Translations under genes and position numbers: made by a program | Shown: piece after piece, positions 1-31,693 of the stretch | Layout of the letters: each line of letters starts with the position of its first letter | Numbering within the stretch: position 1 is the stretch's first letter | Source: a virus | Lineage: Duplodnaviria; Heunggongvirae; Uroviricota; Caudoviricetes | Length of the DNA: 34,924 nt | Virus record (IMG/VR): IMGVR_UViG_2896589216_000002 | Strand: one strand, 5' to 3' | The notes under the pieces: generated by a model | What the model saw: only the letters and a program-made list of their open reading frames with translations | Database searches by the model: none | What the model was told of the DNA's origin: nothing

Positions 1-381
1 ATGCAGAAAAATGTGAATCCCGGCAGGCGAAAAGGCTGCCCTAATTATCCTCCCGAATTTAAACAGCAGCTCGTTGCTGCCTCCTGTGAACCCGGGATAT
101 CCATCTCAAAACTTGCTCTTGAAAATGGCATTAACGCCAATCTGTTGTTCAAATGGCGACAACAATGGCGCGAGGGAAAGCTGCTATTACCTTCTTCAGA
201 GAGCCCCCAGCTACTTCCTGTGACTCTCGATGCAGCTGCCGAACAGCCAGAATCGCTCGCAGAGGATCCGGAAACCCTCAGTATCAGCTGTGAGGTAACG
301 TTCCGGCACGGGACGCTCCGCTTTAATGGCAATGTCAGCGAAAAGCTCCTGACTCTGCTGATACAGGAACTGAAGCGATGA
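1..381 (+). CDS. tnpA: IS66-family accessory protein TnpA (OrfA), first ~7 codons cut by window edge
   Basis: Identical to the 133-aa ORFs at 19886-20287 and 28328-28729 (which start MGTKVSDMQKNVN). Confidence 0.85.
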   Translation: MQKNVNPGRRKGCPNYPPEFKQQLVAASCEPGISISKLALENGINANLLFKWRQQWREGKLLLPSSESPQLLPVTLDAAAEQPESLAEDPETLSISCEVTFRHGTLRFNGNVSEKLLTLLIQELKR

Positions 382-725
382 TCCCGTTACCTTCCGGGAC
401 CAAAATTTGGCTGGTTGCCGGTATCACCGATATGAGAAATGGCTTCAACGGCCTGGCGGCAAAGGTGCAGACGACGCTGAAAGACGATCCGATGTCAGGT
501 CACGTTTTTATCTTCCGTGGGCGTAATGGCAGTCAGGTAAAGCTCCTCTGGTCTACCGGCGATGGACTGTGTCTGCTGACCAAACGGCTGGAGCGCGGCC
601 GCTTCGCCTGGCCGTCAGCCCGGGATGGCAAAGTGTTCCTCACACCGGCACAGCTGGCGATGCTCCTTGAAGGTATCGACTGGCGGCAGCCTAAAAGACT
701 GCTTACGTCCCTGACTATGTTGTAA
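378..725 (+). CDS. tnpB: IS66-family TnpB (OrfB), 115 aa
   Basis: ATGA overlap with tnpA; conserved IS66 OrfB-type sequence; three identical copies in window. Confidence 0.85.
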   Translation: MIPLPSGTKIWLVAGITDMRNGFNGLAAKVQTTLKDDPMSGHVFIFRGRNGSQVKLLWSTGDGLCLLTKRLERGRFAWPSARDGKVFLTPAQLAMLLEGIDWRQPKRLLTSLTML

Positions 726-773
726 GCCTCTTTATCCTGGTCGACGCTGAATGAGCCTGGTAATATACCCGGT

Positions 774-2312
774 ATGAGCAGCTCACTTCCTGACGATATC
801 AATGCACTGAAACGTCTCCTTGCCGAACAGGAGGCGCTGAACCGTGCCCTGCTGGAAAAGCTGAACGAGCGTGAACGCGAAATAGACCATCTGCAGGCAC
901 AGCTGGATAAGCTGCGCCGGATGAACTTCGGCAGCCGCTCCGAAAAAGTCTCCCGTCGTATCGCACAGATGGAAGCTGACCTGAAGGCACTTCAGAAAGA
1001 AAGTGATACCCTTACCGGTCGGGTTGACGACCCGGCCGTGCAGCGCCCGCTGCGTCAAACCCGCACCCGCAAACCGTTCCCCGAATCACTCCCCCGCGAT
1101 GAAAAACGGCTGCTGCCGGCAGCGTCATGCTGCCCGGAATGTGGAGGCTCACTGAGCTATCCGGGTGAGGATGCCGCCGAACAGCTGGAGTTGATGCGCA
1201 GCGTCTTCCGGGTTATCCGGACTGTACGTGAAAAGCATGCCTGTACTCAGTGCGATGCCATCGTGCAGGCCCCCGCGCCTTCACGGCCCATCGAGCGGGG
1301 TATCGCAGGACCGGGGCTGCTGGCCCGCGTGCTGATCTCAAAGTATGCAGAGCACACCCCGCTGTACCGCCAGTCTGAAATGTACGGCCGCCAGGGCGTG
1401 GAGCTGAGTCGTTCACTGCTGTCGGGCTGGGTGGATGCATGCTGCCGGCTACTGTCACCGCTGGAAGAAGCGCTTCAGGACTATGTGCTGACTGACGGTA
1501 AGCTCCATGCTGATGACACGCCTGTCCCGGTGCTGTTGCCAGGCAATAAGAAAACGAAGACCGGGCGGTTATGGACCTACGTTCGTGACGACCGTAACGC
1601 CGGGTCAACGCTGGCGCCGGCGGTGTGGTTCGCTTACAGCCCGGACAGAAAAGGCATCCATCCGCAGACCCATCTTGCGGGGTTCAGTGGTGTACTGCAG
1701 GCGGATGCATACGCCGGGTTCAACGAGCTGTACCGGGATGGCCGGATAACGGAAGCCGCCTGTTGGGCTCACGCCCGCCGTAAAATCCACGATGTGCACG
1801 TTCGCACCCCGTCAGCCCTGACGGAGGAAGCGCTGAAACGGATCGGCGAACTGTACGCCATCGAGGCAGAGATAAGGGGAATGACGGCGGAGCAGCGCCT
1901 TGCCGAACGTCAGTTGAAAACGAAACCGCTGCTGAAATCCCTGGAAAGCTGGCTGCGTGAAAAGATGAAAACCCTGTCGCGACACTCAGAACTGGCGAAA
2001 GCGTTCGCATACGCCCTGAACCAGTGGCCGGCGCTGACGTACTATGCAGATGATGGCTGGGCTGAGGCGGACAATAACATCGCTGAAAATGCGTTGCGGA
2101 TGGTCAGTCTGGGCCGCAAAAACTACCTGTTCTTCGGTTCGGATCATGGAGGAGAGCGGGGAGCGCTGCTGTACAGCCTGATCGGGACGTGCAAACTGAA
2201 CGGAGTGGAGCCAGAAAGCTACCTCCGCTATGTCCTTGACGTCATAGCCGACTGGCCGATAAACCGGGTCGGCGAACTGCTCCCCTGGCGCGTAGCACTG
2301 CCGACTGAATAA
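774..2312 (+). CDS. tnpC: IS66-family transposase TnpC, 512 aa
   Basis: Long ORF with Cys-rich zinc-finger-like region (CCPECG...CTQC); identical to copy 3. Confidence 0.9.
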
Positions 2313-2345
2313 CACATCCCCGTCAATACGGTTCTTGCTGCACGC

Positions 2346-2705
2346 TTACGATTTTGCCAGCATGACTACCGGGGACAGGCGGCCCAGTGAGTCGGGACCA
2401 GCATTCCAGATACGACCGTTCCATTCAAACGTGAACGGCTTCGCCTCCTGTTCTGCGCGCCATGCTTCAATTTCCTGACGTCTGGCCTCTCTGGCCGCTT
2501 CCTGCATTTCTGGTGTCACAGTGAATGGGGCTATCTCACCCCATTTGCCGCTTTGCAGTTCCTGCCAGATTTGCTGACCCGTCGGAGCGACATCATCAGC
2601 GGTGGCTGTGTAGGGGACTGCCTGGTCCCTGTCGTCAAAAAAAACGTCACAGTCTACTGCGCCACTTTCGGTATAACGGGGATTAATGATTTTTTTAGTT
2701 TCCAC
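2346..2705 (-). pseudogene. tail fiber assembly protein (Tfa-like), GTG start at 2705; 3' end abuts IS66 and stop codon lies inside the IS terminus
   Basis: RBS gagga upstream of GTG (VETKKIINPRY...); last sense codon 2349-2351 and stop 2346-2348 straddle the IS66 end. Confidence 0.5.
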
Positions 2706-2715
2706 GGTGCATTCC

Positions 2716-3069
2716 TCACGATGTGCGAATAAAAAGCCCGGGCATTGCGCCAGAGACATGTGCATCCGGCACCCCGGACAGGGCGCAATATGACCCCGGT
2801 AATGAATGCTCTGAACATCCCGTAATGAAAAATTGTGGGGATGCTATATACGTTCCGGTGGGAGTACTGGGCACTGAAATCCCCACCGGTCCCAGTCGTG
2901 AGCCTCTGTATGACTGCCCCCTGACAAGTCTGATGACTTTATCACCGTCAGCTTCTCCCTGGTACGCAGCAATAATCAGCCCGCCAATGTCAGGGGCTCC
3001 CCATCTGTTGCGGACAGAGCTCGCCACGATTCTGTAAATAATATCTTCTGTGGTTATATTTATTTTCAC
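2716..3069 (-). CDS. hypothetical protein, 117 aa, between side tail fiber and tfa
   Basis: ATGA-coupled to upstream fiber ORF; no recognisable family; could be a displaced fiber C-terminal domain. Confidence 0.35.
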   Translation of the reverse strand: MKINITTEDIIYRIVASSVRNRWGAPDIGGLIIAAYQGEADGDKVIRLVRGQSYRGSRLGPVGISVPSTPTGTYIASPQFFITGCSEHSLPGSYCALSGVPDAHVSGAMPGLFIRTS

Positions 3070-4124
3070 CCAGTCAGTCTGGATATGGGCCAGTAGCAGT
3101 AGCGGGTGTGATAAATGGGGCCGTTAATGCCGTAAAAAGTAAGGGATTTGGCTCTGTACCGCGGTTCTGTTGTCTCAGGGCGTGCATCAGTCCACCGGAT
3201 GCTGAGCACCCCTTCAAACCGTGTGTCGGGTATGATGCCCAGGCGGCCAGCAACGGAATACTCACCTGGCAGCGCATTCCTTACCCAGGCCAGGAAATCA
3301 CTCTTAGTGTCAAAACGGATAACATCTTCAGGCAGAAAAGCACACCCAAAGCCGAATGCGCCGGGTATCGCCAGACGGCCTTTTGTCCGGTCGTAAATGT
3401 CGCTCTGTGCTTCCATCGTGGCCGCACTTTTCAGCCCCAGATTATCCCGGGACTTCTGTTGTGCCTTTTCGCCTGCTGCTGCGATTTCTGACAGATGGTT
3501 AGCCATTTTCAGAGTGCCGGTAAGCGCAGCATCAATGTCATTTTTGGCCTGTTCTGCTGCGCGGGCATAACCTGCGGCATCCTGTGCGCTCTGTCCGGCT
3601 GCGGCTGCATTTGCTCCTGTGCTTGTCACATCTTCCGCAGTGGCCTTTCTGTCCTCAGCTGTGACGGTTGCATCCTGTCTGGCATTCTCCGCAAAACGTT
3701 GTGCATCATCACGGGCCGTTGCGGCTGCCGCCACATCCTGCGCCGTCTGCTGTGCGTTTCCGGCTGCGGCCCCGGCGCTCTGCTGCGCCTGCACCACCAT
3801 TTCCTCAAAGCGTTTGACGACATCCGGTTTCAGGTCGCCCTCATCAGGAGCAATCAGAAAGTCATTCAGCGTGCCGGGCTTTGAGTCCTCATATACAGCA
3901 ATGTCGCCAACGTTGTACTCGTTGTGCCAGCCCGGTTTCAGATACACACCATATTTTCCAGTCCGCGCATGGAAACAGTATTCACCATCGTTTCCTGTCA
4001 TCACATCAGCAACAGTGTGCATCACCACTTCCGGGGTGTTTACCCGGGATTTCAGAATAATATGGTATCCGGACATGGGGATACCTGCGCCATCAGTCAG
4101 CGCACCTGATATCACTACAGACAT
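3066..4124 (-). CDS. stf: side tail fiber protein with lambda Stf-like N-terminal domain and Ala/Gln-rich shaft, 352 aa
   Basis: N-terminus (ISGALTDGAG...VYEDSKPGTLNDFL) parallels lambda Stf N-domain (VYEDSQPGTLNDFL). Confidence 0.7.
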   Translation of the reverse strand: MSVVISGALTDGAGIPMSGYHIILKSRVNTPEVVMHTVADVMTGNDGEYCFHARTGKYGVYLKPGWHNEYNVGDIAVYEDSKPGTLNDFLIAPDEGDLKPDVVKRFEEMVVQAQQSAGAAAGNAQQTAQDVAAAATARDDAQRFAENARQDATVTAEDRKATAEDVTSTGANAAAAGQSAQDAAGYARAAEQAKNDIDAALTGTLKMANHLSEIAAAGEKAQQKSRDNLGLKSAATMEAQSDIYDRTKGRLAIPGAFGFGCAFLPEDVIRFDTKSDFLAWVRNALPGEYSVAGRLGIIPDTRFEGVLSIRWTDARPETTEPRYRAKSLTFYGINGPIYHTRYCYWPISRLTG

Positions 4125-4476
4125 AGTTTTTCTCGCGATAAATTAAATCAGGAAGAAATTTCCGGAGAGGCGGGCCATTCAATGGCGTTGTATGAGGTTT
4201 TATCAGTGATGACACTGAAATCCATCGCCTGCAGCGATTTCGCGTAAATGCGGTACGCTTTCAGTTTTTCCCGGTCTTCGTCGCTGATTAGCCCCAGCAG
4301 CAGGTCTTCTTCCCATTCCCCTGTCCGGGCACTGACCTGAGCCAGAAGGGCATCACGCTCATCTTCCGCTTTGAGTCTGTAGTCAAAGACAAATTCATCA
4401 TTGCGGTAAAACCAGTAACCCGGCGCGGTAATGCGGCGGTTGGCGGTAATATCAGGAACTTGGTAATGACTCCAAC

Positions 4477-4980
4477 TTACTGATAGTGTTTTATGTTCAG
4501 ATAATGCCCGATGACCTTGTCATGCAGCTCCACCGATTTTGAGAACGACAGTGACTTCCGTCCCAGCCTTGCCAGATGTTGTCTCAGATTCAGATTATGT
4601 CGCTCAATGCGCTGAGTGTAACGCTTGCTGATAACGTGCAGCTTTCCCTTCAGGCGTGATTCATACAGCGGCCAGCCATCCGTCATCCATACCACGACCT
4701 CAAAGGCCGACAGCAGGCTCAGAAGACGCTCCAGTGTGGCCAGAGTGCGTTCACCGAAGACGTGCGCCACAACCGTCCTCCGTATCCTGTCATACGCGTA
4801 AAACAGCCAGCGCTGACGTGATTTAGCACCGACGTAGCCCCACTGTTCGTCCATTTCAGCGCAGACAATCACATCACTGCCCGGTTGTATGCGCGAGGTT
4901 ACCGACTGCGGCCTGAGTTTTTTAAGTGACGTAAAACCGTGTTGAGGCCAACGCCCATAATGCGTGCACTGGCGCGACAT
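4477..4980 (-). CDS. insB: IS1 InsB
   Basis: Canonical IS1 InsB sequence. Confidence 0.9.
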
Positions 4981-5174
4981 CCGACGCCATTCATGGCCAT
5001 ATCAATGATTTTCTGGTGCGTACCGGGCTGAGAGGCGGTGTAAGTGAACTGTAGTTGCCATGTTTTACGGCAATGAGAGCAGAGATAGCGCTGATGTCCG
5101 GCAGTGCTTTTGCCGTTACGCACCACGCCTTCAGTAGCGGAGCAGGAAGGACATCTGATGGAAATGGAAGCCAC
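4899..5174 (-). CDS. insA: IS1 InsA
   Basis: Canonical 91-aa InsA with CxxC zinc finger. Confidence 0.9.
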
Positions 5175-5472
5175 GCAAGCACCTTAAAATCACCATCATA
5201 CACTAAATCAGTAAGTTGGCAGCATTACCCAGGAACTTCAATAACACTGGCGTTACGGGGTTCAATGCCTGTCACATCCTTACCGACCCACACCACGCGA
5301 CCGTCTCCGGTGTAAGTTATTTTAATTGTGTCGCTGGCGAAATTCTTCAGCTCTTCATACCAGTTTTTTCCGTCTTCCGAAAAAAGCCAGGTGACATCAT
5401 ATTGTTTTGTCAGCTGATATTGTTCCACGGTTTTCGGATTGCCCGCAGTAATATTTTTTAAATGCAACATTG

Positions 5473-6858: not shown

Positions 6859-7261
6859 TACGGGACTCCTTTAAAACTACTGAAACATAAACACCCGGCG
6901 GGGACGGCAGTGCACCCGACGACTGGATAATCGCCAGTTCTGCCAACGAGAGCGCGGACTCAAAGATGTAACTCATCCTCAGCCCACCATTATTCAGAAC
7001 ATAAGCCCGCCGTTTTTTTCCGAACATAAATCTCAGCATCCGGTTAATATCCGGAACGGAACAGTCAGTAATGTTCGACATGGCTTTCATCAGTATCAGC
7101 CGCCGGTATACAGCATCAGACAGGTCAACAGTCCGGGTATCCGATTTTCCGTTGTAAAACGGTGCCTGATTAGACTGGCCCCCTGAATCTCCAGACAACC
7201 AGTATCACTTAAATAAGTGATAGTCTTAATACTAGTTTTTAGACTAGTCATTGGAGTACAG

Positions 7262-7627
7262 ATGATTGATGTCTTAGGGCCGGAGAAACGCAGACGGCGT
7301 ACCACACAGGAAAAGATCGCAATTGTTCAGCAGAGCTTTGAACCGGGGATGACGGTCTCCCTCGTTGCCCGGCAACATGGTGTAGCAGCCAGCCAGTTAT
7401 TTCTCTGGCGTAAGCAATACCAGGAAGGAAGTCTTACTGCTGTGGCCGCCGGAGAACAGGTTGTTCCTGCCTCTGAACTTGCTGCCGCCATGAAGCAGAT
7501 TAAAGAACTCCAGCGCCTGCTCGGCAAGAAAACGATGGAAAATGAACTCCTCAAAGAAGCCGTTGAATATGGACGGGCAAAAAAGTGGATAGCGCACGCG
7601 CCCTTATTGCCCGGGGATGGGGAGTAA
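7262..7627 (+). CDS. insC: IS2 InsC (OrfA)
   Basis: Starts [16 protein letters not shown] protein. Confidence 0.9.
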
Positions 7628-8490
7628 GCTTAGTCAGCCGTTGTCTCCGGGTGTCGCGTGCGCAGTTGCACGTCATTCTCAGACGAACCGATGACTGGAT
7701 GGATGGCCGCCGCAGTCGTCACACTGATGATACGGATGTGCTTCTCCGTATACACCATGTTATCGGAGAGCTGCCCACGTATGGTTATCGTCGGGTATGG
7801 GCGCTGCTTCGCAGACAGGCAGAACTTGATGGTATGCCTGCGATCAATGCCAAACGTGTTTACCGGATCATGCGCCAGAATGCGCTGTTGCTTGAGCGAA
7901 AACCTGCTGTACCGCCATCGAAACGGGCACATACAGGCAGAGTGGCCGTGAAAGAAAGCAATCAGCGATGGTGCTCTGACGGGTTCGAGTTCTGCTGTGA
8001 TAACGGAGAGAGACTGCGTGTCACGTTCGCGCTGGACTGCTGTGATCGTGAGGCACTGCACTGGGCGGTGACTACCGGCGGCTTCAACAGTGAAACAGTA
8101 CAGGACGTCATGCTGGGAGCGGTGGAACGCCGCTTCGGCAACGATCTTCCGTCGTCTCCAGTGGAGTGGCTGACGGATAATGGTTCATGCTACCGGGCTA
8201 ATGAAACACGCCAGTTCGCCCGGATGTTGGGACTTGAACCGAAGAACACGGCGGTGCGGAGTCCGGAGAGTAACGGAATAGCAGAGAGCTTCGTGAAAAC
8301 GATAAAGCGTGACTACATAAGTATCATGCCCAAACCAGACGGGTTAACGGCAGCAAAGAACCTTGCAGAGGCGTTCGAGCATTATAACGAATGGCATCCG
8401 CATAGTGCGCTGGGTTATCGCTCGCCACGGGAATATCTGCGGCAGCGGGCTTGTAATGGGTTAAGTGATAACAGATGTCTGGAAATATAG
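7585..8490 (+). CDS. insD: IS2 InsD (OrfB transposase)
   Basis: 301-aa DDE ORF overlapping insC in -1 frame. Confidence 0.9.
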
Positions 8491-8787
8491 GGGCAAATCC
8501 ACTGATTAAACGGACAGGGATCATCCATTACCGGGGTGTCCATCCTGGACTCGCTGAAGCCCAGGTAATTAAAATCGTCCTTTACCGTCAGCCGGCGACT
8601 GACACCCACAATCTTTCCCCAGACATCAAGACCATACTTTTCTGCGGTATCGATGTTCCAGATAAGACCATAAAAATCACTGATAAAACTGTCGGGGGAA
8701 AGCGCTGCGTTAAAGCTGTTAATGAGGGCATTGAGTCGGGGGCTGGCAGCATACTGCGCAAGCACAGTGGCAGCCACATTCTGCACG

Positions 8788-14944: not shown

Positions 14945-15180
14945 TTCTGTTCTCCTGTATCACCTGTTCGTTATGGGCATCCACATGAATTATTTCCAGC
15001 AGATCCCATAAGTCCTGCACACCAAGGACAGAATCCAGTTCAGCTTTTGAAGCCTTACCGGAGGAGATAACGGTCGCAATGGTACGGGGAACATTAACGT
15101 AATCCACCACCCCGAACGGTCTGTCGGGGTCGAGATAACGCGGGGGATATCTAGCTGACGACGGTAGCGAAAAAATCCAC
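14928..15180 (-). CDS. candidate frameshift extension of tail chaperone (+1 frame relative to 15151-15555)
   Basis: Protein-like +1 frame (...PRYLDPDRPFGVVDYVNVPRTIATVISSGKASKAELDSVLGVQDLWDLLEIIHVD...) opens at the T6C run and ends overlapping the tape measure start. Confidence 0.4.
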
Positions 15181-15555
15181 ATGCAGCTTAAAGACCTCCG
15201 CACGCAGATTAAGACGGGTAATGATTTCTTCAATATCCTCTTCAACAAGCGGTCTCCGGATGCTGCGTTTTTTCGGATCGGGAACAAACTGCACACAGTC
15301 CATCATTTCATCCATCAACGGACGCGCCTCATCAGGCGGAATTTTCGATAATGCTTTCAGCCCTTCAAGGGCAAGCGCAGCCATCCCCAGACTACGAACA
15401 TCATCCGGTAACTCCACGCCACCACGCCCCATTGCCATAATGGCACGCATCGCCCACCATTCCGCCTGTGAGGCAGACATTTCGGTAAGATGAAATACCT
15501 TGCCCTTATCCCGTCCCTGACCTTCAATAGTGATAAATTTCTCTTTACGGGCCAT
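15151..15555 (-). CDS. tail assembly chaperone, 134 aa
   Basis: Directly upstream of tape measure; ends at slippery run GAT TTT TTC. Confidence 0.5.
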   Translation of the reverse strand: MARKEKFITIEGQGRDKGKVFHLTEMSASQAEWWAMRAIMAMGRGGVELPDDVRSLGMAALALEGLKALSKIPPDEARPLMDEMMDCVQFVPDPKKRSIRRPLVEEDIEEIITRLNLRAEVFKLHVDFFATVVS

Positions 15556-15893
15556 CAGTTAAAAACCTCCGGAGTAATGGTTTCCCACTCAATAACCGCC
15601 TGCCCTGGCTGCAACGTACGAGCTGCATCAGGCAGCGCTTTCCATTGTTTGAGTACGCCATTCACGCAGGTATATTTACGGCCAATCGCCGGAAGCAGGA
15701 CGACAGCGTTACAACGGAATACAGCCCGACTGGCCCGGATGTGGTTGACCAGGTATCAAAAATATCCCGGCTGGGGGAATCCGGCATGATATGAAACGTC
15801 TGGATAATGTTGCTGTACACAAATCCCGCGGACAGTTTGGTAATGCTGCCAACTTACTGATTTAGTGTATGATGGTGATTTTAAGGTGCTTGC

Positions 15894-16169
15894 GTGGCTT
15901 CCATTTCCATCAGATGTCCTTCCTGCTCCGCTACTGAAGGCGTGGTGCGTAACGGCAAAAGCACTGCCGGACATCAGCGCTATCTCTGCTCTCATTGCCG
16001 TAAAACATGGCAACTACAGTTCACTTACACCGCCTCTCAGCCCGGTACGCACCAGAAAATCATTGATATGGCCATGAATGGCGTCGGATGTCGCGCCAGT
16101 GCACGCATTATGGGCGTTGACCTCAACACGGTTTTCCGTCACTTAAAAAACTCAGGCCGCAGTCGGTAA
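15894..16169 (+). CDS. insA: IS1 InsA
   Basis: 91-aa InsA. Confidence 0.9.
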
Positions 16170-16195
16170 CCTCGCGCATACAACCGGGCAGTGAT

Positions 16196-16591
16196 GTGAT
16201 TGTCTGCGCTGAAATGGACGAACAGTGGGGCTACGTCGGTGCTAAATCACGTCAGCGCTGGCTGTTTTACGCGTATGACAGGATACGGAGGACGGTTGTG
16301 GCGCACGTCTTCGGTGAACGCACTCTGGCCACACTGGAGCGTCTTCTGAGCCTGCTGTCGGCCTTTGAGGTCGTGGTATGGATGACGGATGGCTGGCCGC
16401 TGTATGAATCACGCCTGAAGGGAAAGCTGCACGTTATCAGCAAGCGTTACACTCAGCGCATTGAGCGACATAATCTGAATCTGAGACAACATCTGGCAAG
16501 GCTGGGACGGAAGTCACTGTCGTTCTCAAAATCGGTGGAGCTGCATGACAAGGTCATCGGGCATTATCTGAACATAAAACACTATCAGTAA
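16196..16591 (+). CDS. insB: IS1 InsB
   Basis: InsB frame. Confidence 0.9.
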
Positions 16592-17955
16592 GTTGGAGTC
16601 ATTACCGACAGTTTACCGTCAATACCGCGGGCAGTTTCCGCCAGTACCAGTGGATCGGTGCCATAAACGTTATCTGTTGCAAATCCCTGAAGTCGTACGC
16701 CGGAGGGATACAGATTATTCACTGTCAGCGTGATAATGGCATCCGCCGCAGTGATGGTGTTGTTGTTACCCGACATTTACTGGACCTCCGTGGATGCAAT
16801 AACAAGTTTCTGGATACTACCGCCGTCACAGTACCAGAGCGTACAGGACGGACTGCTACGGGTTGCCCGCAAAGAGGGAAGCATATCGCCGATATACAGG
16901 TAATAGCCGGTGGCAAACAACGTTGAAGAAACATCTGCCTCCACAACATTGTTAATCTGTTTCTTCTGCGCCTCCGTCAGTGTCACCCCTTCACGGATCC
17001 CTCCCAGCGTTTGTACTGCTGGATAACGTCACTCATTGACGCTGCAACCAGCGCCCGCCCTTCATTGTTGTAGGGGACCGTCTGGTTTGACTTGAATAAT
17101 GCGATCACCGCCCCTGCAAACTGGCATTCAGCCAGATTTGCCCGCAGAAACTGTCCAGCCATTTAAAATCACCGGTAATAGTGCCATCCGCCCAGTAATC
17201 TTCCACCACACTGTTTTCCGCATATTTTCCGTAGAAATTGTAACCTGCGGCGATCAGCGCATCATAATCGCTGCCACTGGTAACATCAGCGGCCAGCCCC
17301 TCATACTCGCGGAACTTGAATGATACACGCCCCTCTGGTCGGATAAAATCAAGGCACGCTGCATACCCCAGTACCGCTGCAGCCCGGTTACCATCAGTCG
17401 CGAAAACAGGTACAACAGAGCTGTAGTTATTGACAGCAATTATCTGGTAAGCGATGTGTTCAGTACTGCCTTTTACTCTGGCGTTGCCGCTGGTTGTCCA
17501 TGCCACATAAAAGTAACGCTTGCCCTGCCCGTTTGCCCATGCAGAAAACGCCAGGTGTTGCTCGTCAGTGACCTCAGATACCGTGGAAAAACCCGCCCAT
17601 TGCTGGGAAGCGGCCTTAATGGCTGCCATTGTGTCAGGGACATCAGATACAGGCGCGCCCCGGGATATCACCGCACCGGTGTTACTGGTCATCTTCAGGA
17701 GTTCTGCTGCCGATCCACTGCCGAACGTTATCGTGGTACTCCCGGGTTTCGCCCCGGCGACAGTAATGACAAAAGCATTCTGTGTGGTATCGAATACCAC
17801 TGTAGCCACTGCTGCGGTCAGCGCTGTCTGTAGTGCCGTTGCAGCAGCGGCGAAGCTGGCGACACCGTTAAAATTCACTTCAATGCTGACGCTTTTCCCG
17901 TTAATACTCAGCATCAGCGTAAGCGTGCAGCAAGAACCGTATTGACGGGGATGTG

Positions 17956-19493
17956 TTATTCAGTCGGCAGTGCTACGCGCCAGGGGAGCAGTTCGCCGAC
18001 CCGGTTTATCGGCCAGTCGGCTATGACGTCAAGTACATAGCGGAGGTAGCTTTCTGGCTCCACTCCGTTCAGTTTGCACGTCCCGATCAGGCTGTACAGC
18101 AGCGCTCCCCGCTCTCCTCCATGATCCGAACCGAAGAACAGGTAGTTTTTGCGGCCCAGACTGACCATCCGCAACGCATTTTCAGCGATGTTATTGTCCG
18201 CCTCAGCCCAGCCATCATCTGCATAGTACGTCAGCGCCGGCCACTGGTTCAGGGCGTATGCGAACGCTTTCGCCAGTTCTGAGTGTCGCGACAGGGTTTT
18301 CATCTTTTCACGCAGCCAGCTTTCCAGGGATTTCATCAGCGGTTTCGTTTTCAACTGACGTTCGGCAAGGCGCTGCTCCGCCGTCATTCCCCTTATCTCT
18401 GCCTCGATGGCGTACAGTTCGCCGATCCGTTTCAGCGCTTCCTCCGTCAGGGCTGACGGGGTGCGAACGTGCACATCGTGGATTTTACGGCGGGCGTGAG
18501 CCCAACAGGCGGCTTCCGTTATCCGGCCATCCCGGTACAGCTCGTTGAACCCGGCGTATGCATCCGCCTGCAGTACACCACTGAACCACGCAAGATGGGT
18601 CTGCGGATGGATGCCTTTTCTGTCCGGGCTGTAAGCGAACCACACCGCCGGCGCCAGCGTTGACCCGGCGTTACGGTCGTCACGAACGTAGGTCCATAAC
18701 CGCCCGGTCTTCGTTTTCTTATTGCCTGGCAACAGCACCGGGACAGGCGTGTCATCGCATGGAGCTTACCGTCAGTCAGCACATAGTCCTGAAGCGCTTC
18801 TTCCAGCGGTGACAGTAGCCGGCAGCATGCATCCACCCAGCCCGACAGCAGTGAACGACTCAGCTCCACGCCCTGGCGGCCGTACATTTCAGACTGGCGG
18901 TACAGCGGGGTGTGCTCTGCATACTTTGAGATCAGCACGCGGGCCAGCAGCCCCGGTCCTGCGATACCCCGCTCGATGGGCCGTGAAGGCGCGGGGGCCT
19001 GCACGATGGCATTGCACTGAGTACAGGCATGCTTTTCACGTACAGTCCGGATAACCCGGAAGACGCTGCGCATCAACTCCAGCTGTTCGGCGGCATCCTC
19101 ACCCGGATAGCTCAGTGAGCCTCCACATTCCGGGCAGCATGACGCTGCCGGCAGCAGCCGTTTTTCATCGCGGGGGAGTGATTCGGGGAACGGTTTGCGG
19201 GTGCGGGTTTGACGCAGCGGGCGCTGCACGGCCGGGTCGTCAACCCGACCGGTAAGGGTATCACTTTCTTTCTGAAGTGCCTTCAGGTCAGCTTCCATCT
19301 GTGCGATACGACGGGAGACTTTTTCGGAGCGGCTGCCGAAGTTCATCCGGCGCAGCTTATCCAGCTGTGCCTGCAGATGGTCTATTTCGCGTTCACGCTC
19401 GTTCAGCTTTTCCAGCAGGGCACGGTTCAGCGCCTCCTGTTCGGCAAGGAGACGTTTCAGTGCATTGATATCGTCAGGAAGTGAGCTGCTCAT
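17956..19493 (-). pseudogene. tnpC: IS66 tnpC with 1-nt deletion (copy 2)
   Basis: gtcatcgcatgg near 18755-18760 versus gtcatcagcatgg in copy 3; ORF splits into 324 + 260 aa. Confidence 0.85.
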
Positions 19494-19541
19494 ACCGGGT
19501 ATATTACCAGGCTCATTCAGCGTCGACCAGGATAAAGAGGC

Positions 19542-19889
19542 TTACAACATAGTCAGGGACGTAAGCAGTCTTTTAGGCTGCCGCCAGTCGATACCTTCAA
19601 GGAGCATCGCCAGCTGTGCCGGTGTGAGGAACACTTTGCCATCCCGGGCTGACGGCCAGGCGAAGCGGCCGCGCTCCAGCCGTTTGGTCAGCAGACACAG
19701 TCCATCGCCGGTAGACCAGAGGAGCTTTACCTGACTGCCATTACGCCCACGGAAGATAAAAACGTGACCTGACATCGGATCGTCTTTCAGCGTCGTCTGC
19801 ACCTTTGCCGCCAGGCCGTTGAAGCCATTTCTCATATCGGTGATACCGGCAACCAGCCAAATTTTGGTCCCGGAAGGTAACGGGATCAT
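19542..19889 (-). CDS. tnpB: IS66 TnpB (copy 2)
   Basis: Identical to copies 1 and 3. Confidence 0.85.
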   Translation of the reverse strand: MIPLPSGTKIWLVAGITDMRNGFNGLAAKVQTTLKDDPMSGHVFIFRGRNGSQVKLLWSTGDGLCLLTKRLERGRFAWPSARDGKVFLTPAQLAMLLEGIDWRQPKRLLTSLTML

Positions 19890-20287
19890 CGCTTCAGTTC
19901 CTGTATCAGCAGAGTCAGGAGCTTTTCGCTGACATTGCCATTAAAGCGGAGCGTCCCGTGCCGGAACGTTACCTCACAGCTGATACTGAGGGTTTCCGGA
20001 TCCTCTGCGAGCGATTCTGGCTGTTCGGCAGCTGCATCGAGAGTCACAGGAAGTAGCTGGGGGCTCTCTGAAGAAGGTAATAGCAGCTTTCCCTCGCGCC
20101 ATTGTTGTCGCCATTTGAACAACAGATTGGCGTTAATGCCATTTTCAAGAGCAAGTTTTGAGATGGATATCCCGGGTTCACAGGAGGCAGCAACGAGCTG
20201 CTGTTTAAATTCGGGAGGATAATTAGGGCAGCCTTTTCGCCTGCCGGGATTCACATTTTTCTGCATATCTGACACTTTGGTTCCCAC
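19886..20287 (-). CDS. tnpA: IS66 TnpA (copy 2)
   Basis: 133-aa full-length. Confidence 0.85.
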   Translation of the reverse strand: MGTKVSDMQKNVNPGRRKGCPNYPPEFKQQLVAASCEPGISISKLALENGINANLLFKWRQQWREGKLLLPSSESPQLLPVTLDAAAEQPESLAEDPETLSISCEVTFRHGTLRFNGNVSEKLLTLLIQELKR

Positions 20288-20687
20288 TACTTATTTGGTG
20301 GACACCACTTTGTCTAATTCGTCAGATTCTGACCAGACGGTTCAGGCTGTACGCTTACGCATCAGCGTGCCGGAAAGTTTTTGTAGCTGTTCAACAGTCG
20401 CGCCCTTAAACGAACCGCTACGTAACCAGGCCGCCGATGGGGCAGGACTGAAACGGGAAAACAACAATTGCCCCGGCGTCCTGGTGGCATTTTTGAAGCC
20501 CTGGAAATAAAGCTGAGCGCGTGCGTACTCATCGGATAATGCACCAAAATACGCGGCCACATCATCCGGAGAGGAAAACGGAACCACAGTGCCGACCGGA
20601 AGTAACGGATTACTGGTCAACAGCAGGCCGTTAAGATCGACGGCATTACCCGCCACAGCCAGCACACCGGGATTTATCTGTACATCT

Positions 20688-21233
20688 TTACTGAGTGGAA
20701 TTGGCATTATCAGCCTCCGTTGTCCGGGTGATCACGTTGTCAAAAAACATCAGGGAAGTTGTGACCACAGGGTTAATCTGCATCTGAATATCAAGCGTCC
20801 AGCGCGGTTCATACTGTTGCTGACCGTTGGGGAATGTGGTGTTAAAGGGCTCTGAGCAATACAGCGGGGAAATCAGCCCACCGCCCTGCCGGAAAAGCCG
20901 TACGGAAAATTCAGACCGGAAAAGCGTTGCCAGCACCTGAGCGTTATCTGCCGCGTGAGGGCCGTAGAAATCAAGCTGGCAACGCCATTTTGTGGTACGG
21001 GTGATATGCTGAGAGCCCTCACCAGCCTGCGCTGGCGCAGAATATGCCACTACCGCAGTGGATAATCCGGTAACATCAATGCCCGTCATGGTGATGAAAT
21101 TCCCCTGAGGCATCGGGACCTGGTTCTGCTGCGTTCGTTCAATCCCGGCATCAGAAAAAAGCCCCCGGTGATAATCACCGAGGGCCTGATAAAGAGCGCT
21201 TTCCGTAACGGAGAGGGTCACACCTGAAGGCAT
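20688..21233 (-). CDS. phage virion protein immediately upstream of sheath, 181 aa
   Basis: Tight operon; position of tail terminator/completion proteins. Confidence 0.4.
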   Translation of the reverse strand: MPSGVTLSVTESALYQALGDYHRGLFSDAGIERTQQNQVPMPQGNFITMTGIDVTGLSTAVVAYSAPAQAGEGSQHITRTTKWRCQLDFYGPHAADNAQVLATLFRSEFSVRLFRQGGGLISPLYCSEPFNTTFPNGQQQYEPRWTLDIQMQINPVVTTSLMFFDNVITRTTEADNANSTQ

Positions 21234-22617: not shown

Positions 22618-23685
<1,068 letters not shown>

Positions 23686-26232: not shown

Positions 26233-26359
26233 GGTGATGACTCCAACTTACTGATAGTGTTTTATGTTCAGATAATGCCCGATGACCTTGTCATGCAGCT
26301 CCACCGATTTTGAGAACGACAGTGACTTCCGTCCCAGCCTTGCCAGATGTTGTCTCAGA
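26233..26359 (-). mobile_element. IS1 fragment (127 bp, IRR end plus insB 3' end), truncated by IS66 copy 3
   Basis: Identical to the 4462-4588 end of IS1 copy 1 up to ...tgtctcaga. Confidence 0.9.
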
Positions 26360-30017: not shown

Positions 30018-30076
30018 GCCTGAGGGCAGGTGTAAAACAATAATCAAGCATGGGGTTCATATCCATAGCTCCATTT

Positions 30077-30622
30077 TTATTTTAAGGAAAGCAACTGCTC
30101 TACGGTCATGTTTTTAATTGCGCCCCGGTTTACAAGAGTCCAGCCCTGTTTTTCCAGATAAAACCGGAAAGTCTCCAGGGTACAGACCAGTGCGCCATCA
30201 GGAACGGTTTCGGTGAATTCGACATTGCCGAATTTGTCGAAGTGAACAACCAGAGTGCGACCATCACCCGGAATCATCTTGTCAGCAGGTGGGGTGTTAT
30301 TCTGGCGCAGTTCGGCCTCCATGCGGTCGAACTCAGCAATGTAGGCTTCCTTGAATGTGGCGGCTTTTTTGCCCGTGAAGCCCATCACCAGGAAAACGAA
30401 GCCGTTTTTGGTGATTTGGTAGGCGTTATAAGAATTGCCGCGGTGTTCGAATTTAACCCGCGAAAAGTTGCTGGTTAAAAATAGTTCAGAACATTCGAGG
30501 GATTCTATTTTTTGAACAACATGGTGATGCTGCTTGCCAAAAAACTCAGCAATCGAAATAGAAGTAGTGACGGCGCGACCATTTTCGATGGTTACGTCAG
30601 GGTGAGAAAGGGTAGTAGCCAT
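30077..30622 (-). CDS. Rha-family phage regulatory protein, ~182 aa from ATG at 30622
   Basis: N-terminal Rha motif (VTTSISIAEFFGKQHHHVVQKIESL); RBS gagga 8 nt upstream; longer 274-aa ORF in track is probably an over-extension. Confidence 0.65.
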   Translation of the reverse strand: MATTLSHPDVTIENGRAVTTSISIAEFFGKQHHHVVQKIESLECSELFLTSNFSRVKFEHRGNSYNAYQITKNGFVFLVMGFTGKKAATFKEAYIAEFDRMEAELRQNNTPPADKMIPGDGRTLVVHFDKFGNVEFTETVPDGALVCTLETFRFYLEKQGWTLVNRGAIKNMTVEQLLSLK

Positions 30623-30788
30623 AATGACATCCTCAAGTGATAAGTTAATTAACTCACCAGCAGAGGTGCTAATCTCATGGGTGGTGAGACGCACAGGGTT
30701 AGCACTACCGGTCACTCGAGAACCCGGCCAGCCTTGCGGCTGCCCCGCACGCCTCACCATAATTTGAATGTGGCTGTGCATTACGCAT

Positions 30789-30814
30789 AAAAAAAACCGC
30801 TTCAGCGCGGTTAT
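30789..30814 (-). terminator. strong rho-independent terminator
   Basis: Minus-strand hairpin aaccgcgctgaagcggtt followed by T8. Confidence 0.7.
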
Positions 30815-30866
30815 GCGCTCGAGTAACTTTCGGGGTGCTAATCCCGGCGCCCGTTTTATGAGGTGC
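30789..30866 (-). ncRNA. candidate ~80-nt small RNA or leader transcript bounded by the promoter and terminator above
   Basis: No start codon inside; predicted RNA gcaccucauaaaacgggcgccgggauuagcaccccgaaaguuacucgagcgcauaaccgcgcugaagcgguuuuuuuu. Confidence 0.4.
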
Positions 30867-30872
30867 AGGTGC

Positions 30873-30901
30873 ATTATAATTCCACCCGTTCTGGTTTTCA
30901 A
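30873..30901 (-). promoter_or_regulatory. near-consensus sigma70 promoter (TTGAAA - 17 nt - TATAAT) reading toward lower coordinates
   Basis: Minus-strand ttgaaaaccagaacgggtggaattataat. Confidence 0.55.
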
Positions 30902-30939
30902 TAGCTACATTCAACATTTTCTCTTTCCTTTCATCACCG

Positions 30940-31085
30940 AAGTGAATTTTGTGATGCGGTGCCTAGTGCCTCCAGGTGACGTTAACCAGTTAACAATTAC
31001 AGTCGGCTTTCCCACCCAAACCAATAAGGACTAACATGACTTTTAACTGTGCCGCGTGCGCTTAGCCGCATTCACCGCATCACAA
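30940..31085. repeat. 22-bp perfect inverted repeat (aagtgaattttgtgatgcggtg) flanking a 102-bp spacer with central gttaaccagttaac palindrome
   Basis: Arms at 30940-30961 and 31064-31085. Confidence 0.8.
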
Positions 31086-31086
31086 A

Positions 31087-31150
31087 ATTCACTTTAAAAA
31101 GGGCGGACATCAGCCAGCAATTAAACCGATGCCGCCAACTGGTACTTCAC
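31087..31150 (-). ncRNA. DicF-like small RNA candidate
   Basis: Downstream of ydfA in a dicA-led operon; hairpin GGCGGCATC...GATGTCCGCC + T5; resembles the DicF core as I recall it (GUUUGGCGGUAUCAG...CUGCCGCCCUUUUU). Confidence 0.45.
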
Positions 31151-31338
31151 ACAGCAATGTCGTTATTTACAACCGGAAGCGCACTCCCACCATTTAAATT
31201 TCACAGACAAGACCGACTCTTTATGAATACCGGAAATGCGCCTTCGTGTTGTGCCCGGTTTTATTTCACCACCTCCGGGCTTTGGTGGCCTCGGCTATAC
31301 CTCTACAGCGAGAATATTGAATTAATCCAATAAATGGA

Positions 31339-31491
31339 TTAGCTGGTATTTTTGGCAAGCCAGCGACGTGCGCCAGCTTCGGTTTTAAACGTTTTGCTTT
31401 TGGTATACGTCATGGCGGTGAATGTGCCGTCCTGATTGGGAAACACGCCACACACTAGGGATTCGTTGTTGCCAAGATCGATAGTATCCAT
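31339..31491 (-). CDS. ydfA: YdfA-like protein (DUF1391), 51 aa from ATG at 31491
   Basis: MDTIDLGNNESLVCGVFPNQDGTFTAMTYTKSKTFK... closely matches Qin YdfA; RBS gagg upstream. Confidence 0.75.
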   Translation of the reverse strand: MDTIDLGNNESLVCGVFPNQDGTFTAMTYTKSKTFKTEAGARRWLAKNTS

Positions 31492-31693
31492 GCTGACCTC
31501 ATTTCCCCTTAACGCCGGGGTAGCGGAACTGTTTGCTGAGAACACCGTGCGGTGTCTTGATGAATGAAATTTAGAATAACCTAAGGTGTTGGGTTAAGAT
31601 TTTATGTAGAAAAACCTAAGTTTTTTTGATGTAAAAAACACAAGTGTTTGAAAGTTTGTGCTTTTTATTACAGGGTGTGGAGAAAAAAGGGGA

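Follow-up and report, generated by a model that had tools for sequence, protein, structure and literature searches.

An IS1 insertion with an 8-bp duplication in a predicted tail tube gene of a decaying Shigella prophage

Results

Genes and features at the locus

The window (the whole stretch of phage DNA analysed here, 34,924 nt) contains a tail gene, encoded on the minus strand, that is divided by a complete IS1 element. The element (15839..16606, plus strand; exactly 768 bp, its ends and ORFs read from the sequence) is an IS1F-like isoform, referred to here as IS1 copy 2, and reads against the direction of the late operon. To its right is the 5' fragment of the interrupted gene (16607..16776, minus strand), which holds the first 56 codons and 2 nt of codon 57; to its left is the 3' fragment (15555..15838, minus strand), inside which there is a 1-bp deletion. 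Directly downstream of this gene – identified below as a tail tube gene – lies a gene for a tail assembly chaperone (15151..15555, minus strand; 134 aa, phrog_1932), the ATG of which is overlapped by 1 nt by the native tube stop TGA (15557-15555). On the other side is a tail sheath pseudogene (DUF3383 / PF11863 / E217_gp31_N; 16777..20707, minus strand), and the genes run in the order sheath, tube, chaperone, SLT-domain tape-measure-like protein.

An intact allele of the tube gene is present in a prophage of E. coli CFSAN029787 (447 nt, 148 aa, WP_000016415.1; NZ_CP011416 530596-531042). DNA identity between this prophage and the window is 99.5% over tube, chaperone and sheath, and gene order is the same: a DUF3383 sheath gene (494 aa) directly precedes the tube gene, the end of which shares 1 nt with the start of the chaperone gene (134 aa), and an SLT-domain tape-measure-like gene and baseplate genes come after the chaperone. 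The CFSAN029787 allele differs from that of the window in that it has no IS1, has GGG in place of GG, and forms an unbroken 148-aa ORF.

The sheath pseudogene is split by an IS66-family element of 2440 bp (17919-20358) with the ends GTAAGCG...CGCTTAC, flanked by an 8-bp duplication, GCATCAGC (17911-17918 and 20359-20366); the sheath resumes at 20359-20707. Mapping on the reference prophage, which shows both the split and the resumption, led us to reject the idea of a sheath truncated at its N-terminus. The transposase of the IS66-family element is itself broken in the window, into ORFs of 260 and 324 aa, and in sister assemblies is either intact (512 aa) or broken at different places. At the boundary between sheath and tube the sheath stop TAA (16779-16777, minus strand) touches the tube ATG (16776-16774), with a GGAGG 8 nt upstream. 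A preliminary description of this DNA had held that the two genes are translationally coupled: the abutment of TAA and ATG is as described, but coupling itself is a suggestion, the arrangement being one that would fit either coupling or independent initiation. With the sheath interrupted by the IS66-family element, the question has no bearing in this genome.

Anatomy of IS1 copy 2

Members of the IS1 family are approximately 768 bp long and are bounded by imperfect inverted repeats (about 23 bp) that open with GGTAATG or GGTGATG; they carry insA and insB', from which a -1 frameshift at an A6C motif produces the InsAB' transposase, a protein with zinc-ribbon, HTH and DDE_Tnp_IS1 domains. IS1 copy 2 has both the length and the repeats of the family. 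The latter are of the GGTAATG... type and match between the two ends at 20 of the first 23 positions: the outer ends are GGTAATGCTGCC... and ...GGAGTCATTACC, the element starting with GGTAATGCTGCCAACTTACTGAT and finishing with ...ATCAGTAAGTTGGAGTCATTACC. The coding parts of the transposase are likewise present, with insA (91 aa) at 15894-16169 and insB' at 16196-16591, both on the plus strand, and the A6C frameshift motif TTAAAAAAC at 16143 (IS position 305). A simulated -1 shift gives an open InsAB' fusion ORF, and in sister assemblies a 232-aa product called at the same place contains PF03811, PF12759 and PF03400 (Zn_ribbon_InsA, HTH_Tnp_IS1 and DDE_Tnp_IS1). Identity to an annotated copy of IS1F is 99.5%, and nothing of substance sets IS1 copy 2 apart from the IS1F-type iso-IS1 of E. 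coli and Shigella; phage P1 has an IS1 that is ~91% identical (~9% divergent), a distance inside known iso-IS1 variation.

The target-site duplication and the empty site

Each end of IS1 copy 2 is touched by a copy of the 8-bp sequence GACAGTTT (15831..15838 on the left and 16607..16614 on the right), just as the preliminary description had placed them. The bases immediately outside the repeats are mismatched on both sides (G/C left, A/G right): the repeat is therefore 8 bp and not 9. A chance repeat was rejected as the source of the pair, the probability of an abutting 8-mer match by chance being ~1.5e-5.

The empty site was sought with a repaired query of 1425 nt, from which IS1 copy 2 and one copy of GACAGTTT had been deleted, and which was searched against complete E. 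coli genomes. Nine genomes matched: seven of these, CFSAN029787 included, did so over the full length at 99.4-99.5% identity, and the other two (H8 and H9) only over query positions 1-1049 (74%). Aligned base by base, CFSAN029787 and the repaired stretch are identical at the junction, and GACAGTTT occurs in the empty site a single time (positions 22874-22881 of the reference prophage, L010). In keeping with this, the blocks of BLAST matches that flank the IS1 in the window overlap by exactly these 8 reference bases. Checked against the empty site, the duplication falls in the range of 8-9 bp that characterizes IS1. The IS1 junction is absent from the complete E. coli genomes searched, and the exact junction had no match among species-representative genome contigs, a set that does not include this strain.

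Duplication length among IS1 copies of the same isoform

The preliminary description presented the 8-bp duplication as a departure from a usual 9 bp. Iida et al. reportedly stated as early as 1981, in the title of their paper, that IS1 makes duplications of 8 or 9 bp. To survey duplications, 120 loci with the exact left end of this IS1 isoform were reduced to 87 distinct full-length copies; the IS-rich genomes sampled were those of Shigella flexneri SFBU1023, E. coli ECMA0423 and Mixta sp. Perfect repeats flank 24 copies, and are of 9 bp in 13 cases and of 8 bp in 11: a split, in this small survey of one isoform, of roughly 54% versus 46%. One of the 87 has only an approximate 10-bp repeat (one mismatch), and 62 (71%) have no flanking direct repeat. 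Recombination between IS copies is expected to remove such repeats in IS-rich genomes. The high proportion of copies that lack repeats points to extensive IS1-IS1 recombination, or to adjacent deletion, in the genomes sampled. Within the window, IS1 copy 1, which differs from copy 2 by 2 nt, made a 9-bp duplication, CAGGAACTT.

An 8-bp duplication is a normal outcome of IS1 transposition, and its oddity had been overstated: the survey shows as much, and a recent paper gives duplications of 8 or 9 bp as typical for IS1 (NAR 2025, PMC12065110). One might go further and suppose that the IS1F-type isoform common in Shigella cuts with an 8-bp stagger far more often than textbook IS1 (of the IS1A/IS1R type). 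We consider this unlikely; if true, the length of the duplication would depend on the isoform or on the target sequence, and could be traced to specific differences in the transposase or the inverted repeats.

State of the tube gene

The 5' fragment of the tube gene reads into the end of IS1, resulting in a chimeric ORF of 63 aa (16585-16776) made up of 57 native residues and six encoded by the IS (VMTPTY). A second lesion lies in the 3' fragment, where GGG has become GG (15737-15738) and the frame is shifted at codon 89; the native C-terminus (…VNGVLKQWKALPDAARTLQPGQAVIEWETITPEVFN) is legible in another frame that ends at 15555. For the 52-aa out-of-frame ORF of the 3' fragment, a look-up aimed at short-read assemblies found no called gene. 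In-silico excision of the IS, proposed earlier as a check, reproduces the empty site but, given the -1 frameshift, regenerates no functional ORF. What it yields is an ORF of 112 aa (and not the ~117 aa previously estimated), the last 24 residues of which are out of frame, as compared to 148 aa for the intact gene. Because the frameshift downstream is fixed, precise excision of IS1 would not restore the tube gene.

Every one of the nine aligned sequences with the IS1 has the 1-bp deletion, and GGG is found in all nine E. coli genomes. The full-length assemblies with the frameshift all appear to be long-read assemblies, with variable homopolymer lengths elsewhere, and a systematic sequencing error at the GG/GGG run must be considered; it is unlikely. 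Since the deletion is invariant in nine sequences in which other homopolymers vary, we take it, from the alignment, to be a genuine second lesion at codon 89. The tube gene would then be a doubly inactivated pseudogene, with probable loss of function.

Four single-base differences separate the window from the E. coli reference over the 1.4-kb stretch, and all are deletions in G/C runs. One (~17111, in a C/G run) is found in this window alone, and a second (~17003, also in a C/G run) is common to the window and only two of eight sister assemblies. A further one (~15142-15147) affects a C6 run just 3' of the chaperone stop and varies among assemblies. These three look like long-read consensus errors rather than biology, to judge from their distribution and from the many other homopolymer indels peculiar to single assemblies, and short homopolymer frameshifts in these long-read assemblies warrant caution.

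Occurrence in other assemblies

In an alignment of 6.2 kb, eight other public (NCBI) assemblies show the same junctions as the window: the insertion is thus not an artefact of assembly. The product of the 63-aa chimeric ORF is recorded on 34 contigs, under the label 'MULTISPECIES ... [Shigella]'; UniRef names Shigella dysenteriae as its organism. In this lineage of Shigella, of S. dysenteriae type, the insertion has become fixed.

Identity of the interrupted gene

The intact 148-aa protein matches Pfam family PF22764 (E217_Gp32) with 63.8 bits (E = 1.8e-17; cut-off 27 bits), and the ORF obtained from the window by excision matches the same family with 41.8 bits, over residues 7-83 only. The protein also matches phrog_1964; NCBIfam has no model for it. 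A sequence search of the PDB gave as its top match the tail tube of Pa193, gp33 (9b42), a weak one (E = 0.019; E = 0.096 by profile). Megablast of the region against a phage collection matched only the IS1 part and found no named close phage there, while at the protein level the closest relative from an isolated phage is that of Pantoea phage PA-1 (54.5% identity). Seventy homologues were collected, of which 42 were aligned.

The fold was tested on an intact homologue (P0001, 97% identical) rather than on the broken ORF of the window. The AF2 model (mean pLDDT 89.1, pTM 0.79) has the features of a tail tube protein – a beta-sandwich, a long helix and an extended beta-hairpin – and the best Foldseek matches in the PDB are the tubes of Pa193 (9b42_M, TM 0.86, rmsd 2.0 A) and E217 (8fuv_A, TM 0.81; rmsd 2.0-2.3 A across the two). 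These are followed by the tube proteins of Pam3, Sf14, PhiTE, AFP and PVC, and then by Hcp. In the model, the frameshift of the window falls within the long helix (residues 76-91), and four C-terminal strands would be lost. Cryo-EM of E217 identified gp32 as the protein of the tail tube, in which 34 hexamers are stacked within a sheath of gp31 (PMC10329688).

E217 gp32 (8fuv) and Pa193 gp33 (9b42) share with the modelled homologue both Pfam family and fold, and their genes, like that of the window, stand directly after a sheath gene of E217_gp31 type. Sequence identity is only about 19-20%; moreover, the window copy, unlike the tubes of E217 and Pa193, is a pseudogene (through IS insertion and frameshift), and belongs to a temperate prophage with lambdoid-type regulatory genes, whereas phages of the E217/Pa193 kind are virulent. 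The interrupted gene is, on the strength of family, predicted fold and position, the tube gene of a contractile tail. The preliminary description had named homology and a tube-like fold as the test of this identity and their absence as its refutation; with the family match above and TM scores of 0.81-0.86 for the model of the intact homologue, both are present, and the claim of an IS1 insertion in the tail tube gene, the IS1 being a complete element of 768 bp, holds.

Decay of the surrounding prophage

The insertion in the tube gene has company. IS1 copy 1 (4462-5229, minus strand) lies in a tail fibre assembly gene, its 9-bp duplication at 4453-4461 and 5230-5238. An IS2 of 1331 bp (7171-8501), with the ends TAGACTGGCC...GGCAAATCCA and a 5-bp duplication (CTGAT), lies in a DUF2612 gene of the baseplate region. 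Of the reference prophage, ~9.4 kb with the head, terminase and lysis genes (L010 26784-36180) has no counterpart in the window, and its place is filled by IS3-family transposase sequence together with further IS66- and IS3-family copies (22964-23685 to about 30019). Much of what remains of the window consists of more IS sequence: copies of the IS66 and IS3 families and two incomplete IS1 sequences, one a fragment and one a partial copy. The fragment (127 bp, 26233-26359) is an IS1 right end that adjoins an IS66-family copy, and the partial copy (34212-34924), which runs past the end of the window, belongs to another IS1 isoform, with 91% identity. Compared with the reference prophage, the regulatory region (30020-31530) has the opposite orientation.

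In CFSAN029787 the reference prophage adjoins rcsC, and has an ipaH T3SS effector gene by its tail fibre genes (L010 11168-12931). At the corresponding end of the window (1-4085) there are instead an IS66-family element and a tail fibre gene of another kind (3066-4124), with a PF08400 N-terminal domain.

Discussion

We interpret the locus as the result of simple IS1 transposition, with an 8-bp duplication, into the tube gene (E217 gp32 / PF22764) of a decaying Shigella prophage, a gene now doubly inactivated, and put the probability of this reading at about 93%; no observation contradicts it. The element and its duplication, the empty site, what the gene encodes, the second lesion and the fixed state of the insertion across assemblies are all matters of observation; the course of events would be as follows. 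A single simple transposition would have placed an intact IS1 into codons 55-57 of the 148-aa tube gene. On established IS1 biology, InsAB' would have made staggered cuts of 8 nt in the target and joined the ends of the IS to them, and gap repair by the host would then have yielded the duplication of GACAGTTT. Residue 57 is the last native residue that the insertion leaves in the tube protein; at codon 89 the gene also carries an independent 1-bp deletion, which would inactivate it a second time. The event would be one step in an IS-driven decay in the course of which sheath, baseplate and fibre-assembly genes were disrupted by IS elements and the head/terminase/lysis module was deleted.

Alternatives concern the duplication, the second lesion and the identity of the gene. 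Homopolymer indels differ among sister assemblies, which shows that the data contain single-base errors, and it might be argued that the duplication was once 9 bp, a base having later been lost at the junction or miscalled by the assembler. This is most improbable, and we reject it: IS1 copy 2 is of canonical length with complete ends, the junction columns are invariant in the nine aligned sequences and lie in runs of 3 nt at most (TTT precedes the left junction), and the overlap at the empty site is exactly 8 bp; nor is that length rare, given its 11 occurrences among 24 intact duplications of this isoform. A similar doubt attaches to the frameshift. If it were a sequencing artefact, IS1 would be the sole true lesion and the tube gene would work again once the element was precisely excised, and that all four single-base differences from E. 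coli are deletions in G/C runs, the two in the sheath varying between assemblies, speaks in favor of this. The deletion at 15737-15738 is nonetheless common to nine of nine aligned sequences from several independent assembly projects, the run affected is short (GGG to GG), and GGG is what every one of the nine E. coli genomes has; we regard an artefact as very unlikely. Even with the tube repaired, the sheath would remain split by the IS66-family element and the head module would still be gone.

Names in the databases would make the product of the interrupted gene a tail fibre protein and not a tube: the RefSeq/PGAP product name for WP_000016415.1 is 'phage tail fiber protein', and the Pfam description of PF22764 is 'Tail fiber protein gp32'. 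Set against these names are the structure of E217, in which gp32 is seen as a tube of stacked hexamers (PMC10329688), the fold search, in which the top matches throughout are tail tube, Hcp and contractile-injection-system tube proteins, and the position of the 148-aa gene directly between sheath and chaperone. We reject a tail fibre on these grounds and give it next to no chance of being correct.

Insertion of IS1 into the tail tube gene of this prophage is real, and had been read correctly in its essentials, but is ordinary: a known element acting in its usual way, and a textbook case of IS-driven pseudogenisation in Shigella, whose kind of genome is widely recognized for IS expansion, with little weight beyond annotation. 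For annotation, a single tail tube pseudogene should replace the 63-aa 'phage tail fiber protein' at this locus. The words 'tail fiber' in the description of PF22764, and in the PGAP product name derived from it for WP_000016415.1, are misnomers.
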